Positions 14,438-30,250 of a stretch of DNA of 64,000 bases are shown piece after piece. Made by a program: the position numbers and the translations under genes. Every line of letters starts with the position of its first letter. The stretch's first letter is position 1. The stretch is from Dehalococcoidia bacterium (GTDB taxonomy: Bacteria > Chloroflexota > Dehalococcoidia > Lucifugimonadales > QGNO01): contig OZ240235.1 in the NCBI GenBank assembly GCA_965197965.1, forward strand, positions 1,189,820-1,253,819, read 5' to 3'. The notes under the pieces are model-generated. The model worked only from the letters and a program-made list of their open reading frames with translations. It did not search any database and was not told where the DNA came from.

Positions 14438-15274
14438 TCACACCGCCAAGTCAAATGGCAAGTCACTGATGTCGCGTAGTCTCCTGCCGGTCATGAGTAT
14501 GTCTAACAATTCAGCATCTGACTCGTTACCCACAACTGCATCCTTCAATTCCCTCAGCGCAAAATGGTAGATGCAGTCGATATCGCCTGTACCATAGGCC
14601 AGTGACGCTATTCGACCAGGAAGAGGTTCCCCTGTGACTACGACTATATGTGGTGTCTTGCCTTTTCGATTTCGCACCAGGTTCAAGCCCTCGGTGCGTG
14701 CGTTTTGAGAGCGGTCACTACGAATTGTCCACTTGCAAGAGACGCTCGCGTGCAGAATCTTCGCTTCCGAATTCGTGCGTCGCAGCGGGGTATAGCTAGC
14801 AACGGTATCGTTGTTCAAAAGGGATTCGTTCTCGTTGATTTTCGAGTCCGTAACCGGCTCTCGGCAGACAACAATGTCAGGCTTTACGATATAGTCGCCA
14901 AAGATGATCTGTAGCTCCTGATGCTCTTCAACCACTCGTCGCACATCGGACAAGTGTAAATACTGCTCGTAGTCACGGATGTCTCCGCCCATCGAGAATT
15001 CCCACTCGCCAGGGCGTAGATGAGCAAGTAACCCAAATGCGTCGCGTAGAAAGCTCCTTGTGGCCTCTTCGAATTGATGTCCCGCCGTCTGCCCAGCCAA
15101 TCTCTCAGACCCCACCGGAAGCCCAATGTTCTCGACTATGCCTCTGGCAATCCTCGCACTCGATGCACTTCCGCTGTCGGCGTTGTTCGGAATTCCAGAC
15201 GTATTCAGTCTCAATACGTCGTTGGCAATTTGGCGGTGGTAAGCTTGTCGGAGAGCTTCGATCCTGCCGGGCAT
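14438..15274 (-). CDS. type II restriction endonuclease, NgoMIV family
   Basis: 278 aa, collinear with NgoMIV as I remember it: LHASVSCKWTIRSDRSQNARTEGLNLVRNRKGKTPHIVVVTGEP, GTGDIDCIYHFAL, RLRDISDLPFDLAV. Contains the S-x-K catalytic motif. The start shares one nt with the MTase stop (TAATG). Confidence 0.85.
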   Translation of the reverse strand: MPGRIEALRQAYHRQIANDVLRLNTSGIPNNADSGSASSARIARGIVENIGLPVGSERLAGQTAGHQFEEATRSFLRDAFGLLAHLRPGEWEFSMGGDIRDYEQYLHLSDVRRVVEEHQELQIIFGDYIVKPDIVVCREPVTDSKINENESLLNNDTVASYTPLRRTNSEAKILHASVSCKWTIRSDRSQNARTEGLNLVRNRKGKTPHIVVVTGEPLPGRIASLAYGTGDIDCIYHFALRELKDAVVGNESDAELLDILMTGRRLRDISDLPFDLAV

Positions 15275-16650
15275 TACATCTTCACCAATCCGATCACGTA
15301 CTCTTTGTGCATACGCTCTTCAATCTGTGATTGCTGTAGCTGACCCCATCGAGCTGGCATCATACGTTTGTCACGATCCAACAGCCGTGTACCGATTCCC
15401 GCTAGAATGAAGCCGGCATGTTCACCGATGGCGGCGAGTCCCTTGTGTGTCTCTACATCCAGGCCCCTTAATTTCGAGGAACCTACTACTATCACAGCCG
15501 GCCGGCCTACTTTCAATACACGCTGCATCTCACAAATGACAGTCTTCATTTCCTCAAAGTAGCGACGCAATACAAGTGCCTTCTTATCATCGCGATTCGC
15601 CAGCTTGACCAACGTCTCTTCACACTGGCTCGGTAGCCCATCCCTGCGCAAGCCAGCAACCGCGTCGTGGCCTACATACTGCGCACGAATCTGGCTGAGG
15701 TCTGCAATCTTCCAACCAAACCACACCAGCGAAAACTTGTGTGCGCGCATATAGTCAATAGCGTTGTTGGCATAGGGTGGCGACGTCACAATCAGATCAA
15801 CACTCGCGGGCGGCAGGCTGGTGTCTGCCGCACTAGTGGCGTGAATGGATGCGGAGGGGAAGGCTTGCGCCTCATCTCCACCGGCTCCGCCTAAAAGAGT
15901 AGGCGTTGCAAGGCCGATTAAGTCGCGCTTACCGAGAGCCGCTACGTTACGCTCTAAACGCTTGCCAAACTCGATGAAGGCCGATACGGGTGTCTTATTT
16001 GTGTCCCTGTGAGGGCGGGTGTGTGCCAAGTCGCGCGCCAATGATACCCCACCAGACTTGGCAATGATTGTTGATGAGAACACTACCTGAAGGAAGCTGC
16101 GCATTCCTCCTTCTGGTAAAGCTTCAATGTGCTGCACGAGAGCAAGCAGTTCAAGCTGTTGCTGGGGCAGGAACCAATAACTTACGAATTCTCGTGTCTT
16201 CGCGTCGAACCTAAGGTTTAAATCCCTCAGTAGCCTCCAGCGGGATTGGTGATAGTCCTCACTTGCGCCAGCTATGATCTTCTTTCCCTCCCAGAGGGCG
16301 ACGACTGGATCAATGGGAGTCAACTTGGCTGTTGCAATCATTCGTGCCAGCGGATCAATGTCGCAGCCAACGGCTCGGCGTCCGAGCCGTATAGCTTCGA
16401 TGAGCGTAGTTCCGGAACCGAGCATGGGATCTAGAACGAGGTCGCCCGGGTTCGAGAGATGGCGAATCATGAACTCTGGCAACTGGGGCGGAAACTTAGC
16501 TGGGAAGGAGTGCCAAGCGTGAGAGCCGTAGCTGCCGTTCGTACCGTGGAAATCTAAGTTAGCACGCAGTGCTTCACGCGTCGCGTCAAGGCGGCTGCCA
16601 ATGTCATCTACTTGAACGGCGGAGTCGGAGGTGAGGTTCAAAAAGCTCAA
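15274..16650 (-). CDS. site-specific DNA amino-methyltransferase (N4-C/N6-A type)
   Basis: 458 aa. HSFPAKFPPQLP, motif I VLDPMLGSGTTLIEA, motif IV LIVTSPPYANN. Translationally coupled to the endonuclease gene. Confidence 0.85.
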   Translation of the reverse strand: MSFLNLTSDSAVQVDDIGSRLDATREALRANLDFHGTNGSYGSHAWHSFPAKFPPQLPEFMIRHLSNPGDLVLDPMLGSGTTLIEAIRLGRRAVGCDIDPLARMIATAKLTPIDPVVALWEGKKIIAGASEDYHQSRWRLLRDLNLRFDAKTREFVSYWFLPQQQLELLALVQHIEALPEGGMRSFLQVVFSSTIIAKSGGVSLARDLAHTRPHRDTNKTPVSAFIEFGKRLERNVAALGKRDLIGLATPTLLGGAGGDEAQAFPSASIHATSAADTSLPPASVDLIVTSPPYANNAIDYMRAHKFSLVWFGWKIADLSQIRAQYVGHDAVAGLRRDGLPSQCEETLVKLANRDDKKALVLRRYFEEMKTVICEMQRVLKVGRPAVIVVGSSKLRGLDVETHKGLAAIGEHAGFILAGIGTRLLDRDKRMMPARWGQLQQSQIEERMHKEYVIGLVKM

Positions 16651-20936: not shown

Positions 20937-21164
20937 TCACCGCTTCATCAGTACGGTGAATTCCTCTACGGAAAGGCCAGCATGCCGAATCAGTGCCCTT
21001 AACGTGCCACGAGCAATCTCTCTATGATCTGGAACCGAAAGGGTTGCCACTGATTCCTCTTTTGTCATGATGATATGGCTGCCAGCTTGCCTCGCAACCC
21101 TCCAACCCGCACTTTCAAATGCCCGCACCGCTTGCTGCCCAGAAACCACGGGCAGTACGGCCAT
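20937..21164 (-). CDS. hicA: HicA family toxin
   Basis: 75 aa. SGQQAVRAFESAGWRVARQAGSHIIM. Confidence 0.8.
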   Translation of the reverse strand: MAVLPVVSGQQAVRAFESAGWRVARQAGSHIIMTKEESVATLSVPDHREIARGTLRALIRHAGLSVEEFTVLMKR

Positions 21165-21479
21165 CTAAGCTGGTACCTCTACCACTATCTCAACTTCAGC
21201 AGTTTCAATAGTGAACGGTAGACTGTCCTCTTCTCTGGACTTCAGAATCTGCTTTATCTCTTCTCCTATAACCTGGGGGTCATCTTCTTGAGAAACCCGT
21301 CCGAACCCTTCGCTATCTCTTACTTCCAGTGAAAGACGGATAGCCTCCCGGATATTCTGAAGCGCCTCTTCTCTGCTTTCCCCCTGGCTCACGCACCCCG
21401 GTAGAGCGGGGCAGTGGATGGAATAGCCTCCCGCCTTTTCTGGCTCTAGTATGACGGTGAACTTTTTCTGCTTTTCCAT
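21165..21479 (-). CDS. hicB: HicB family antitoxin
   Basis: 104 aa. FTVILEPEKAGGYSIHCPALPGCVSQGESREEALQNIREAI. Confidence 0.8.
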   Translation of the reverse strand: MEKQKKFTVILEPEKAGGYSIHCPALPGCVSQGESREEALQNIREAIRLSLEVRDSEGFGRVSQEDDPQVIGEEIKQILKSREEDSLPFTIETAEVEIVVEVPA

Positions 21480-24118: not shown

Positions 24119-24643
24119 CGCAGCCATCCGCACCGTAGGGGCAACCCTCGTGGTTGCCCTGGCCCGTACCCGACCATTCCCCGCACTGTCATTCTGAACG
24201 GAGCTCCCGCGGAGTGAAGAATCCAAAGCCTCTGCCCGCAAAGCCGTGCTGTTTACTCCAACCACCCCCTCCGTCATGCCCGTGACGACGGGCATCCAGG
24301 GGCGGGGCGGGGAGCCGCCGTCATCCGCACCGTAGGGGCAACCCTCGTGGTTGCCCTGGCCCATACCCGACCATTCGCCCCCGCACTGTCATTCTGAACG
24401 GAGCTCCCGCGGAGTGAAGAATCCAAAGCCTCTGCCCGCAAAGCCGCGTTGCTTAATCAAACCGCTCCTCCGTAGTGAGCAATCGCCCCCCTCTCGTCAT
24501 TGCGAGCGCAGCGAAGCAATCCGGCGGCCGGGGGGTTGTCATTCTTGAGCGCAGCGAAGAATCTTTTACCATAGCAAACTCCGTCCCCTTACCCGCAACT
24601 CCGCCCCGTTTGCCCGCCTGCCCTCTTGCCCGTCCGCCTCCCC
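24119..24643. repeat. intergenic hairpin-repeat mosaic with a 197-bp tandem composite
   Basis: GTAGGGGCAACCCTCGTGGTTGCCC at 24135-24159 and 24332-24356. GTCATTCTGAACGGAGCTCCCGCGGAGTGAAGAATCC modules at 24188 and 24388. ATTGC-type at 24495-24527 and ATTCT-type at 24538-24573. TTGCCCG-rich tail 24600-24640. Composite period 197 bp (24125 vs 24322). Confidence 0.9.
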
Positions 24644-25555
24644 CTACCCCCACCACCGCATGCTCTCACCGTAGGGGCGGGTCTTCTCCTCCGGGCCGGG
24701 CTTGCGGAACACAAACAGGTGCTCGTGCATTATGAGAAGGAAATTCTTATCGCGAGACAGGCGAGTCCACAGGCCCTCCGTCTGGGTATTCCACTGAGCC
24801 TTGACAATGTCCTCTTTGAGGATGAATCCGGCCTCCAGGAACGCCTGCATGACGCGAAACGCTATTGGCGTGTAGTGCTTGTTGCGGCGCGTATCGCCCA
24901 CCAGGATGGCGCAGTAGTGATCGGGCTTCAGCACGCGGAAGCACTCATCCGCCACCAGCCTCATCTGCTCCACAAACTCCGCTATGTCGCGCACCTTGGA
25001 CAGGTCGCCGTTATGCGCCGCTTCCTTGCCCGAATACTTGATGATGTTCGCGTAGGGAGGATGCGTGGCGATGAGGTCGATTGAGTCCGCCTCTATCTTG
25101 TCCAGGCGCCGCGCGTCTCCCTGGTACAGACGTATGTCGACCGGTTCCAGCGGCTCCTCCAGCCTGCCCGAGAAGTTGAGCGCGTCCATGGTCAGCATCA
25201 GCGAGTCGCGGTTGACGTCCACGCCTATGCCGTGGCGGCCCGTCAGCTTGCACTCCACGAGTGTCGTGCCGCCGCCCGCCATCTGGTCGAGCACCGTGTC
25301 CCCGGGCAGCGAGTACCTCTCGATGACGTTGCGAACTATCTGCGGAGCCCAGTTGCCCCGGTAGGCGGCGCGATGCGTGGCCCATCTGCCCCGCTTGGGA
25401 AACGACCACAGCGTGGTGGTCTCCGTCTTGAAATCGTCTGGCTGGAGCTTCTTGGGACGCTGGTGTCCCTTGAGGCGGATCTCGACTTCCCCAGCCGATA
25501 CGGTCTTTTGGCGGGCAAGGAAAGACAGGTAATCGGCTTGTGTAATGAGCCGCAT
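24644..25555 (-). CDS. site-specific DNA amino-methyltransferase (N6-A/N4-C type)
   Basis: 303 aa. LWSFPKRG..ATH..YRGNWAPQI, motif I VLDQMAGGGTTLVE, motif IV IDLIATHPPYANII (unusual His before PPY). Confidence 0.8.
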   Translation of the reverse strand: MRLITQADYLSFLARQKTVSAGEVEIRLKGHQRPKKLQPDDFKTETTTLWSFPKRGRWATHRAAYRGNWAPQIVRNVIERYSLPGDTVLDQMAGGGTTLVECKLTGRHGIGVDVNRDSLMLTMDALNFSGRLEEPLEPVDIRLYQGDARRLDKIEADSIDLIATHPPYANIIKYSGKEAAHNGDLSKVRDIAEFVEQMRLVADECFRVLKPDHYCAILVGDTRRNKHYTPIAFRVMQAFLEAGFILKEDIVKAQWNTQTEGLWTRLSRDKNFLLIMHEHLFVFRKPGPEEKTRPYGESMRWWG

Positions 25556-25556
25556 T

Positions 25557-25619
25557 GATCAGACCGCCAGAGCGATCCGATCTTACGGATCATTTTCAAA
25601 AGATCAAGATCAAATGATC
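25557..25619. promoter_or_regulatory. GATC cluster / inverted-repeat operator-like region upstream of the methyltransferase gene
   Basis: GATC at 25557, 25574, 25579, 25588, 25602, 25608 and 25616. Inverted repeats GATCCG-n6-CGGATC (25574-25591) and AGATCA AGATCA aa TGATCT (25601-25620). Confidence 0.6.
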
Positions 25620-25633
25620 TAACAAACCGCCGA

Positions 25634-26431
25634 CTATCTCAGAACCCTGTAGTGTCCGCCATCCAGGAACTGCAAGACCCCGTTATCACGCAGAACCTGT
25701 AGCTGCTGACGAATCTTGGGCTGGACGTTTCTATTCTCTGGGTGAAGGCCGCCTAGATAACCTTCAAAAGCCTTGTAGAAGCCCTGAAGGACGAACTCAT
25801 CGGAGTTAGTCATCTCTTGCATCTTTCTGACGCACATGAGGATATCCGCAGTCCATCCCCCTTTGGCATTCTCACCCTGGCCAAGAAAAGCGAACCGGCT
25901 CCAAGCGTCGCGTACATCTTGAGACGGCAAAGCTTTTTCATTCTCTACAACTGTGACACGCGCGTCTCCCGGTAGCTCACGCAACAAGATATTGGAGCCT
26001 ACCCATCCGGCACGGCGTGCCCATGGAGGTAAAGGAGGACGTTTTTCAATGATAGCAGGCGTTATGAAGTACCCAGGCACAATGAATAAGTCCATAACCA
26101 CCCATCTCTGTCGAGAGTAGCGAAGGAATATGTAGTTAGGCGCCAGCCCGTCTTGGATGGCTTTCATCTTGGGCCAATAGGCAGAATTGGAGGCTTTCCT
26201 GCCAAAAGTCTTGTCCGCGCTTTTCAGTTGGTAGCTGGCCTTACAGTCCGGGCAATCGTAATCCCTTACTCTTGCGTTTGCCCGCAACTGGTCCAAATGC
26301 TCTGATGGACATGCCGGGCAGAACAGGTTCTCCCTTGCCCAATGTTCGGTAATTACTCGTGCTATCTGCGAATGGCTCTGGTAACCCTCAGCCAAGGACG
26401 GGTCTAAGTTCAGATCCACGTACAACTCCAA
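25634..26431 (-). CDS. DpnI-family (methyl-GATC-directed type IIM/IV) restriction endonuclease homolog
   Basis: 265 aa, collinear with DpnI as I remember it: YQSHSQIARVITEHW, FCPAC, RDYDCPDCKASYQLKS, RRAGWVGSNI, KIRQQLQVLRDNGVLQF (C-terminal winged helix). Confidence 0.85.
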   Translation of the reverse strand: MELYVDLNLDPSLAEGYQSHSQIARVITEHWARENLFCPACPSEHLDQLRANARVRDYDCPDCKASYQLKSADKTFGRKASNSAYWPKMKAIQDGLAPNYIFLRYSRQRWVVMDLFIVPGYFITPAIIEKRPPLPPWARRAGWVGSNILLRELPGDARVTVVENEKALPSQDVRDAWSRFAFLGQGENAKGGWTADILMCVRKMQEMTNSDEFVLQGFYKAFEGYLGGLHPENRNVQPKIRQQLQVLRDNGVLQFLDGGHYRVLR

Positions 26432-26746: not shown

Positions 26747-26775
26747 CGGAGACTCCGATTACCCCGGAGTCTCCG
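26747..26775. terminator. perfect 11-bp hairpin (CGGAGACTCCG-attaccc-CGGAGTCTCCG)
   Basis: Read directly. The stop codon of the 280-aa gene (26759-26761) sits in the loop. No clear U-tract on either strand, so terminator function is uncertain. Confidence 0.4.
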
Positions 26776-27601
26776 TAGTATTGACGATATGTCCATTGCT
26801 CTCGACTTGCCGTTCATTGGCACGTTGTTGCTCTAGTTGTCGCCTGCCTCTGGCTCGGAACACTTTGCCGAGTGCCGCCCAGACCTCATCGAATTCTTTA
26901 TCCTCGAATTCAGCAAGGTCTTGCTCTGAGATTACCAATGAGCCAGAGGGTGCAGATATATCTGTGGAGGCACCGGTTGTAGCCCTTTGGGTTTGTTGTG
27001 GCTTAGGCGGGTCGTTGGGTAGTACATAATCTGGTTCTGAAGGGGCTTCAAAAACGGGCATTATGGTTGTTCTCTCAACCGACAGATATGTATGCCCACC
27101 AGATGATACCAATACCCCTATATCACGCGCAGAGTCCATCAGAACCCGAAGAGCCGAGCCTACTCTGTTGGACTCTATCTCAAACTCACGTTCTAGAACG
27201 TTCCGCATCTCGGCATCTTGGGGTAGATGCTGACCCTTGAAGCGCATAGCCACTTCCCTGAACAGCGGTATCCGTAGAAATGATTCTCGAAGGGCATCGC
27301 TCTTTTCTTCTGGTGAAGTAGGCTTGATAATAGCCTTCGCCAAGTCTGTAGTAGACAACTCCTCTCCTGCTTTCGTTAGCAACCCAAATTGTCTCGCAGT
27401 CAGTCCACGAAGCAAAAAGCCACTACTCTTGGCTGAGACGCCAAGGTTTATTGCCAATGTACTTTGGGTTAGCCTTCCGGCACCGCCTCGTTCAACCGCT
27501 TCCGCTATTTGCAGAGCAGTACCGAAATCATAAGCAGGGAACAGATAGCGAGACCTAACCGGTTGTTTGCGAACCCTACCATTATTACTCTCAACAGCCA
27601 T
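26759..27601 (-). CDS. hypothetical protein, probable winged-helix DNA-binding N-terminal region
   Basis: 280 aa. Two similar segments (FGTALQIAEAVERGG..LTQSTLAINLGVS; LSTTDLAKAI...) suggest wHTH modules. Acidic/basic C-terminal tail. No family recognised. AT-rich islet. Confidence 0.55.
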   Translation of the reverse strand: MAVESNNGRVRKQPVRSRYLFPAYDFGTALQIAEAVERGGAGRLTQSTLAINLGVSAKSSGFLLRGLTARQFGLLTKAGEELSTTDLAKAIIKPTSPEEKSDALRESFLRIPLFREVAMRFKGQHLPQDAEMRNVLEREFEIESNRVGSALRVLMDSARDIGVLVSSGGHTYLSVERTTIMPVFEAPSEPDYVLPNDPPKPQQTQRATTGASTDISAPSGSLVISEQDLAEFEDKEFDEVWAALGKVFRARGRRQLEQQRANERQVESNGHIVNTTETPG

Positions 27602-29819: not shown

Positions 29820-30250
29820 GGCATCCGCCCCGCCATTCCGAGGAACGGAAGCAACCCGGCCGGCCGCACCGTAGGGGCAACCCTCGTGGTTGCCCCGGCC
29901 GCGCCCCGCCGCGGCCTCCCCTAGCCTGCACCCGGCTATTTCCACTCACTCCCTCCGTCATTGCCTCCATTTCGTCATTGCGAGCGCAGCGAAGCAATCT
30001 GGTGGCGCGGGGCGAGCAACGCGCACTCCCCTCTGTCATTCTGAACGGAGTTCCGCGGAGTGAAGAATCCAAAGCCTCTGTCCGCAAAGCCGCGACGTTT
30101 AATCGAACTGCCCCCTCCGTCATGCCCGTGACGACGAGTACCCAGGGGCGGCGGGGAGCCTGTCATTCTGAACGTAGCTACGCGGAGTTAAGAATCCAAA
30201 GCCTCTGTCTACAAAGCCGCGCCGTTTAATCGAACTGCCCCCTGGGAAGC
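29820..30250. repeat. intergenic hairpin-repeat mosaic
   Basis: GTAGGGGCAACCCTCGTGGTTGCCCC 29871-29896. ATTGC-type 29973-30005. Two GTCATTCTGAACG...GAAGAATCCAAAGCCTCTGTC modules starting at 30045 and 30162. CCGTCATGCCCGTGACGACG hairpin about 30116-30150. Confidence 0.9.

Follow-up and report, generated by a model that had tools for sequence, protein, structure and literature searches.

A conserved GATC-packed element at the 5' end of a methyltransferase gene adjoining a DpnI-family nuclease gene in Dehalococcoidia

In the 64,000-nucleotide stretch of Dehalococcoidia DNA analysed here (hereafter the window), the spacer between a DpnI-family nuclease gene and a DNA methyltransferase (MTase) gene was found to be packed with GATC sites. 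The cluster is real, non-random, under selection and physically tied to the start of the downstream gene, and it is restricted to one group of GATC-related cassettes, in which it forms a conserved and selected regulatory element. We give an even chance to the reading that the cluster constitutes the MTase's own promoter and 5' leader, with an activity that depends on the state of GATC methylation.

Results

A dense GATC cluster in a nuclease-MTase spacer

Seven GATC sites, starting at positions 25557, 25574, 25579, 25588, 25602, 25608 and 25616, were read directly from the sequence, in agreement with the first-pass annotation, as were both inverted repeats it had described (GATCCG-n6-CGGATC and AGATCA-AGATCA-aa-TGATCT). 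The sites were numbered #1-#7 along the minus, MTase-coding strand (25616, 25608, 25602, 25588, 25579, 25574 and 25557, respectively). The whole cluster lies inside the 78-bp spacer through which the minus strand passes from nuclease to MTase (Table 1). On this strand the stop codon of the nuclease gene occupies 25634-25636 and the ATG of the MTase gene 25553-25555, the site at 25557 being 1 nt away from the ATG.

The expectation of fewer than one GATC by chance was also borne out: about 0.15 sites are expected in 63 bp, and the Poisson probability of finding at least seven is 3e-10 (approximately 2e-5 when corrected for a scan of the whole window). Every other 63-bp stretch of the window contains at most three GATC sites, and when the spacer was shuffled 200,000 times the maximum reached was four. 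The window as a whole is depleted in GATC, with 161 sites compared to 291 expected from dinucleotide shuffles (Markov O/E 0.63, z = -8.3), making GATC the most significantly depleted of the 4-bp palindromes.

Table 1 Positions of the features discussed. Coordinates refer to the window unless preceded by a locus label.
Feature	Position	Strand	Basis
303-aa DNA methyltransferase, N6_N4 family, circularly permuted	24644..25555	-	Pfam N6_N4_Mtase; motif order
Seven-GATC cluster	25557..25619	.	Site list and count statistics
78-bp nuclease-MTase spacer, read as putative MTase promoter and 5' leader	25556..25633	-	Travels with MTase start; GATC conservation
Perfect palindrome AGATCA-TT-TGATCT (sites #1 and #2), abutting/overlapping putative -35	25607..25620	.	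Direct reading; 9/11 aligned loci
Putative -35 hexamer TTGATC (site #3)	25602..25607	-	CTTGA invariant, 11/11 aligned loci
Putative -10 hexamer TAAGAT	25580..25585	-	T-A-n-G-A-T invariant at fixed spacing, 11 loci
Inverted repeat GATCGC-TCTG-GCGGTC (site #6), around predicted transcription start	25562..25577	-	GATCGCT invariant
261-aa DpnI-family nuclease, PD-(D/E)XK + winged-helix, QxK variant	25634..26419	-	Pfam, PDB, PADLOC
CcrM-like MTase (6PBD, 1e-55) followed by Q-type DpnI homolog	L018:2000-3792
PDDEXK_11 nuclease followed by HPPY MTase	L100:2930-4532

Conservation of the cluster across related loci

The nuclease-MTase pair was identified at ten loci besides the window (L001-L007, L016, L099 and L101), seven of them from Dehalococcoidia MAGs and three found via MTase homologs. 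A lack of GATC clustering at orthologous loci had been named in the first-pass annotation as evidence against a function; clustering was instead present at all ten, with 4-7 GATC sites just upstream of the MTase ATG. Sites #1, #2, #3, #5 and #6 are kept out to loci whose nucleases share 49-67% identity, and sites #4 and #7 are found in close relatives only. Among the close loci (dS 0.15-0.44), 140 of 140 GATC positions are identical, compared to 215 of 250 (86%) of the other spacer bases (p = 1e-7), and among the distant loci 75% of the GATC bases are conserved as opposed to 55% of the other spacer bases (p = 0.002).

In three loci (L003-L005) a gene encoding 329 amino acids has been inserted after the nuclease gene and the GATC cluster remains beside the MTase start; the cluster therefore belongs to the 5' region of the MTase gene. 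The inserted gene itself (L003:4831-5823, L004:4829-5818, L005:4830-5816) is an orphan without any family match. The insertion lies directly upstream of the cluster, and the nuclease 3' end is repeated directly, over 19-26 bp, at its borders.

The nuclease and MTase genes are the only two genes common to all pair loci, which limits possible trans-acting factors to these two proteins or to general host factors. Together with the cluster, the pair was found in four unrelated genomic contexts. As the element moves with the cassette into all four, a GATC cluster of the replication-origin or sequestration type was rejected. Descent of the promoter from a phage or mobile element was likewise rejected, since all 26 hits of TANGATCNGATCGCTNNGG in a scan of viral contigs were coding matches in frame, none of them close to an MTase or nuclease; a nuclease-based scan of viral sequences gave nothing relevant.

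Architecture of the putative promoter

Read along the coding strand, the spacer sequence is TAGATCATTTGATCTTGATC-N16-TAAGATCGGATCGCT-ctg-GCGGTC-tgatca-ATG, and in an alignment of 11 loci the segments CTTGA, TTT, TAnGATCnGATCGCT and ATGCGG were invariant. The invariant arrangement CTTGA-N-TAnGATCnGATCGCT has a spacing resembling that of sigma-70 promoters, and the region as a whole can be read as one, comprising a candidate -35 hexamer, a gap of 16 nt, a candidate -10 hexamer, a GATC at the predicted start and a palindrome just upstream. The last three bases of the -10 hexamer open GATC site #5, and across the 11 loci GATC overlaps the presumed -35, -10 and +1 regions. The putative -35 is TTGACG in L007 and TTGACA in L017 and L109, and the putative -10 is TAAGAT, TAGGAT or TACGAT. 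The inverted repeat around the predicted start has GCGGTC or GCGATC as its right arm in 10 of 11 loci, giving the general form GATCGC-N4-GCGRTC, and GGCGG (25564-25568) is the sole Shine-Dalgarno-like element.

A general promoter scan did not call the element, the hexamer pair scoring 8/12 against a cut-off of 9/12. Each of 18 cassette loci contained the composite pattern TTGAYN-N16-18-WANGATC-N0-2-GATC a single time, always where and in the orientation expected, and the 705 kb scanned had no further occurrence outside the cassette position. Being derived post hoc, the pattern shows specificity and is not an independent test.

The DpnI-family nuclease

The identities assigned to both flanking genes in the first-pass annotation were correct. 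The nuclease matches Pfam DpnI (PF06044, 1.6e-54) and DpnI_C (PF17726, 3.1e-20) in a full-length two-domain architecture, as well as PDB entry 4ESJ (4e-49 over residues 5-263) and the PADLOC model mREase_II ('Type II methyl-directed restriction enzyme', 4.8e-61). Its start is probably GTG 26419 and not TTG 26431, given that homologs are 261 aa long and that GGAG is found 8 nt upstream.

Residues were mapped onto R.DpnI following the published structural work (PMC4117772, PMC3424567). The methyl-cleft residues L134, R140, W143 and G145 (L129, R135, W138 and G140 in DpnI) and the guanine and adenine base contacts Q22, N52 and R131 (Q18, N48 and R126 in DpnI) are present, and the K, R and Q of the recognition helix are conserved. 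Of the catalytic site, E29, D57 and K70 are present (E25, D53 and K66 in DpnI), and the metal ligand E64 is replaced by Q68. Glutamine occupies this position in all 120 of the closest homologs and glutamate in all 120 of the closest relatives of the pneumococcal DpnI. Among 149 family representatives (50% identity) 69 have Q and 68 have E, with the other catalytic residues being conserved, which makes QxK an ordinary variant of the family rather than evidence of decay. Sites of the QxK and NxK types occur naturally in HinP1I and MspI, and EcoRI E111Q binds DNA and barely cuts it. In DpnI itself, the E64A substitution abolishes activity (PMC3424567).

Judged by the strict conservation of D57, K70 and E29, the protein probably functions as a nuclease and not as a repressor. 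The dN/dS of its gene was 0.10-0.36. A dead nuclease serving purely as a reader was rejected as the main reading, because the change of E64 to Q is clade-wide, the D, K and E25 equivalents are kept, and no residue distinguishes nucleases with an MTase partner from those without one. Cleavage of unmethylated GATC by the DpnI homolog, as in conventional restriction-modification (R-M), is also unlikely, since close Q-type relatives stand alone in L111, L017 and L109 and the protein has an intact methyl cleft. The DpnI-like genes of L004 (4720-4795, in the recognition helix) and L007 (4013-4794, mid-gene) have apparent frameshifts, which may be real decay or long-read assembly errors and were left out of the evidence.

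The HPPY methyltransferase

The MTase matches Pfam N6_N4_Mtase (PF01555) with 89 bits, compared to a cut-off of 26.7. Motif I, VLDQMAGGGTT (MAGGGTT at residue 92), precedes motif IV, THPPY (residue 164), so that the enzyme is permuted and lacks the beta-class order of motif IV, target-recognition region and motif I: residues 23-117 correspond to profile positions 117-214, and residues 142-223 to the N-terminal DPPY region of 2ZIE, the SPPY-type enzyme that is its closest solved relative (7e-12). In motif IV (ATHPPYA) a histidine replaces the usual D, N or S; it is invariant in 121 family members, and HPPY falls outside both the SPPY (m4C) and the D/NPPY (m6A) rules. The literature searched yielded nothing usable on the HPPY motif or on GATC methylation in Dehalococcoidia. 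With more than 7,700 detected homologs, the HPPY MTases make up a large and so far uncharacterised family.

DpnII cuts unmethylated GATC, and a gene for a DpnII-like restriction endonuclease adjoins the MTase homolog in 17 of 82 loci (homologs 50-63% identical). In addition, GATC ranks in the top three palindromes by depletion in every host contig. Both observations make it likely that the MTase is GATC-specific, a specificity transferred from the neighbours of enzymes at 58% identity. The commonest neighbour of the MTase family, present in 44 of the 82 loci, is a family of ~160-215 aa proteins (for example L012:2559-3176, L024:124-708 and L028:4458-5099, and 41 other loci), for which Pfam, PADLOC and PDB gave no match and which may be an undescribed restriction endonuclease; other neighbours include small PD-(D/E)XK proteins.

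Upstream of MTase homologs with 50-63% identity from 80 metagenomic loci, 0-2 GATC sites were found within 120 bp, L009-L015 likewise had at most two, and the cluster is therefore specific to one cassette group and not a property of the MTase family. The dN/dS of the MTase was 0.10-0.19.

Coexistence of an MTase and a methylation-dependent nuclease

A GATC adenine MTase next to a Gm6ATC-dependent nuclease should be lethal or in genetic conflict. In line with this, a published survey reported that m4C/m6A MTase genes directly adjoining PD-(D/E)XK-wH (DpnI-type) genes were frameshifted (PMC11037411). Contrary to the genomic expectation for the DpnI family, an intact MTase with a predicted GATC specificity adjoins a DpnI-type nuclease in 11 loci. 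The two proteins co-diverge (Spearman rho = 0.93, 36 comparisons), and both genes are under purifying selection, the MTase in most lineages.

Some relatives have lost the MTase. In L107 and L108 the DpnI-like gene is intact and the MTase is a pseudogene (L107:3864-4772, L108:1825-2733) with three in-frame stops and degraded motifs, THPPY having become IHHPY, of which the gene caller reported a 117-aa fragment; the promoter retains 4-5 GATC sites. This loss looks like conflict resolution, and neutral loss is possible as well. No MTase is left in L017 and L109/L110, which share 80% identical nuclease genes; a homologous TTGACA...GATCAACGATCnCGATC element with three sites (L017, L109) has been kept there between diverged flanks. 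No GATC cluster was found at L111 (Q-type) or at an E-type locus of Psychrobacter, and no residue was found that separates MTase-paired from unpaired nucleases.

As to how the two proteins coexist, the possibilities that the MTase makes a cytosine mark, and that it makes m6A with methylation gated by the promoter and possibly read by the nuclease, appear about evenly balanced.

Different cassettes behind a shared GATC element

Two further loci, L018 and L100, occupy one chromosomal site between Asp_protease and adh_short/GlnA genes, with flanks that are 86-88% identical, and encode different cassettes (Table 1). Each cassette is preceded by a homologous region with 6-7 GATC sites in the same grammar. 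The homology between the loci is 77% across the cluster and stops right after GATCGATCGCC. The cassette behind the seven-site cluster of L100, which is comparable to that of the window, contains no DpnI-like gene, and a DpnI homolog is therefore not required for the element to persist; by the same reasoning, its presence in L018 shows that the HPPY MTase is not required either. The L018/L100 site is an analogue, in the Chloroflexi, of the pneumococcal dpn locus with its alternating cassettes.

Other features of the neighbourhood

The first-pass annotation had also counted a 280-aa winged-helix protein among the players at the locus. This ORF (26759-27601, minus strand), located upstream of the nuclease gene, was present in the window only and absent from every related locus, and it had no match in Pfam, NCBIfam, PADLOC, PHROG or PDB and none to any HTH family; it was consequently rejected as a regulator and has the look of an accessory gene carried at a variable position.

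Tandem intergenic repeats with units of ~64 and 90 nt (CTGTCATTCTGAACGGAG...GAGTGAAGAATCC...), 92-94% identical, are found at 24119-24468 and 30033-30243, where they flank the MTase, the nuclease, the 280-aa ORF and an amidohydrolase gene; they may be REP/MITE-like elements. A HicA/HicB toxin-antitoxin pair (20937-21479, minus strand), conserved in L002, is encoded ~3 kb beyond the MTase. Further away, another N6_N4 MTase with circular permutation, 458 aa long (15274-16650, minus strand), has motif I (LVLDPMLGSGTT) near its N-terminus followed by an m4C-type TSPPY motif IV, and no partner nuclease was identified for it. The neighbourhood has something of the flavour of a defence island.

Discussion

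Proposed role of the element

The first-pass annotation had suggested a methylation-sensing operator or leader for the MTase. The part concerning a conserved and selected element in the 5' region of the MTase gene stood, and the position and grammar of the sites fit a promoter or operator that would be able to read GATC methylation; we infer from the sequence the promoter role, the GATC target of the MTase, the effect of methylation on transcription and the sign of the feedback.

In the mechanism we envisage, the GATC tetramers would coincide in part with the -35 (TTGATC), with the -10 at its 3' edge (TAAGATC) and with the region of the start (GATCGC), the palindrome pair lying just upstream. 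The MTase would methylate its own promoter, and this methylation would change how the promoter is engaged by RNA polymerase and possibly also by the methyl-GATC-reading DpnI homolog. The resulting feedback would keep MTase output within a narrow range, which would matter because the neighbouring gene encodes a nuclease of a family that cuts methylated GATC. The element is not strictly an autoregulatory device of this MTase, as in L018 the corresponding promoter would drive a CcrM-like (probably GANTC) MTase, and as it persists without an MTase in L017 and L109. Moreover, should the MTase make Gm6ATC, DpnI would find no better substrate in the genome than the cluster in its fully methylated form, and autoregulation of a simple kind would leave the survival of the cell unexplained.

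Alternative explanations

This paradox would be removed if the HPPY MTase made GATm4C, or another mark that is not m6A, compatible with or protective against the DpnI homolog, in which case the two genes would form a complete self/non-self system, m6A denoting foreign and m4C self DNA, and the cluster would serve ordinary cognate-site feedback on the MTase promoter. Such a protective cytosine mark, which we consider rather unlikely, differs from the favoured reading in chemistry only. It would render all four nuclease partnerships of the family (DpnII-like, PDDEXK_11, the ~200-aa family and DpnI-like) free of conflict with a single modification type, and it agrees with the stable retention of both genes under purifying selection and with the SPPY type of the nearest solved MTase relative. 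Furthermore, Asp78 of DpnI hydrogen-bonds the cytosine N4 of GATC (PMC4117772), with which N4-methylation should interfere. Weighing against it, HPPY conforms to neither motif rule, searches of the literature turned up no GATm4C MTase, and the MTase loss in L107/L108 resembles the resolution of a conflict, neutral loss being possible too. To our knowledge, the cognate MTases of DpnII-family enzymes, where characterised, make m6A. With m6A retained, the DpnI homolog could instead operate the element as a switch: it would bind the fully methylated cluster, its winged-helix and catalytic domains each reading one Gm6ATC, and shut off the MTase promoter or cut it, with adenine methylation staying too low for genome-wide self-restriction. 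The conserved methyl cleft and recognition helix, the separate Gm6ATC sites bound by the two domains of DpnI (PMC4117772), the co-divergence of the pair and the occurrence of the cluster downstream of DpnI-like genes even where the MTase is decayed or gone are all consistent with this. We nevertheless judge it distinctly unlikely, as L100 has a comparable cluster and no DpnI-like gene, paired and unpaired nucleases have no distinguishing residue, and the strict conservation of D57, K70 and E29 points to a probably working nuclease, for which cutting its own locus would be costly. A more far-reaching version, also rather unlikely in our estimate, is that adenine MTase and DpnI-type nuclease form one stable, co-evolving module in which a promoter saturated with GATC serves as an epigenetic safety catch, the nuclease reading the promoter and self-methylation staying below the cutting threshold, or as a trigger that is switched on with foreign Dam and turns both the invading DNA and the infected cell into substrate. 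If this were true, a host writing the very mark cut by its own restriction enzyme would be its defence logic.

We regard two further explanations as highly unlikely, the second by a little the more so. The GATC stretch could be a fixed promoter or junction of a hot spot exchanging GATC-targeting cassettes, where cleavage at the sites may stimulate exchange and the presence of the element beside the MTase would be inherited and not tuned. The different cassettes of L018 and L100 at one site, with homology ending just past the cluster, suggest as much, as do the insertion with its flanking repeat immediately upstream of the cluster in L003-L005 and the replacement of the MTase just past the cluster in L017 and L109, and syntenic GATC cassettes have a precedent in the dpn locus of the pneumococcus (PMC4471560). 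Junctions, however, fall in intergenic DNA regardless, the cluster accompanies the nuclease-MTase pair into four unrelated contexts, and site-by-site purifying selection argues for a sequence-specific function beyond that of a breakpoint. Alternatively, the palindromic GATCs could act in RNA, weakly terminating transcription of the nuclease gene at AGAUCA...UGAUCU and the UUUU after it and, in read-through transcripts, hiding the MTase AUG in a leader hairpin, so that the MTase would be translated from its own promoter only. The spacer RNA is predicted to fold with -39.5 kcal/mol (z = -4.0), pairing both the AUG and GGCGG in a hairpin, AGATCA-TT-TGATCT is also a stem predicted by RNAalifold, and the consensus stems are retained in 9-11 of 11 loci. 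In the 11-locus alignment, though, there was no covariation (covariation term +0.29, double change in 1 of 16 pairs), and GAUC is self-complementary, so that clustered sites produce stems automatically and RNA structure is inseparable from plain sequence conservation; no terminator was called. An unknown host factor acting on the element has less support.

Comparison with known systems

The kind of element described here is known; the GATC-packed variant and the stable pairing of a DpnI-type nuclease with an MTase have not been described in the literature searched. The closest likeness is to the CfrBI R-M system, which is controlled by methylation of its cognate site in the promoter region (bioRxiv 10.64898/2025.12.04.692298): as there, the predicted promoter region of the present MTase includes the presumed cognate sequence, through which the enzyme's own methylation would feed back. 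CfrBI combines a single site, placed in a divergent M/R promoter, with a conventional restriction enzyme. The loci studied here differ in having co-directional genes, a nuclease from a methylation-dependent family, and 5-7 sites that extend over the putative -35, -10 and +1 regions and a palindrome upstream of them.

Dam-dependent GATC regulation is also known from pap and the IS10 transposase promoter of Gammaproteobacteria. A Dam-regulated group of GATC sites lies upstream of agn43 (PMC4752239). These systems likewise have several GATC sites within tens of base pairs of a promoter and their methylation sets expression, but they require a competing DNA-binding protein (OxyR or Lrp) and the orphan Dam; in the present case the conserved module contains no such protein, the regulated gene would be that of the MTase itself, and the host is a GATC-depleted member of the Dehalococcoidia. 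In R-M systems with C proteins, a small HTH controller gene and a C-box operator are conserved, whereas here no gene other than those of the nuclease and the MTase is common to all loci.

Alternative GATC-targeting cassettes at one site, as in the swap between L018 and L100, are found in the pneumococcal dpn locus, where DpnI, DpnII, DpnIII and MjaIII-like cassettes alternate (PMC4471560), and in the Neisseria dam-replacing gene, a DpnI-family gene in place of a GATC methylation system (PMC4269198). No GATC-rich promoter was found for these loci in the literature searched, and the DpnI-type nuclease and GATC MTase are mutually exclusive in them, while both are intact, co-evolving and part of one cassette in the loci studied here. 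The nuclease resembles R.DpnI (PDB 4ESJ / 4KYW) in its two domains, zinc cysteines, D53/K66/E25 equivalents, methyl cleft and recognition helix, and differs in the replacement of Glu64 by Gln and of E228 by Pro and in the intact MTase gene attached. DpnI-type enzymes have been treated as stand-alone and incompatible with GATC methylation, yet at least 11 loci from uncultured Dehalococcoidia keep both genes intact. If the MTase makes m4C, this would represent a new type of self-mark protecting against a methylation-dependent enzyme, and if it makes m6A, a tightly gated self-targeting pair.
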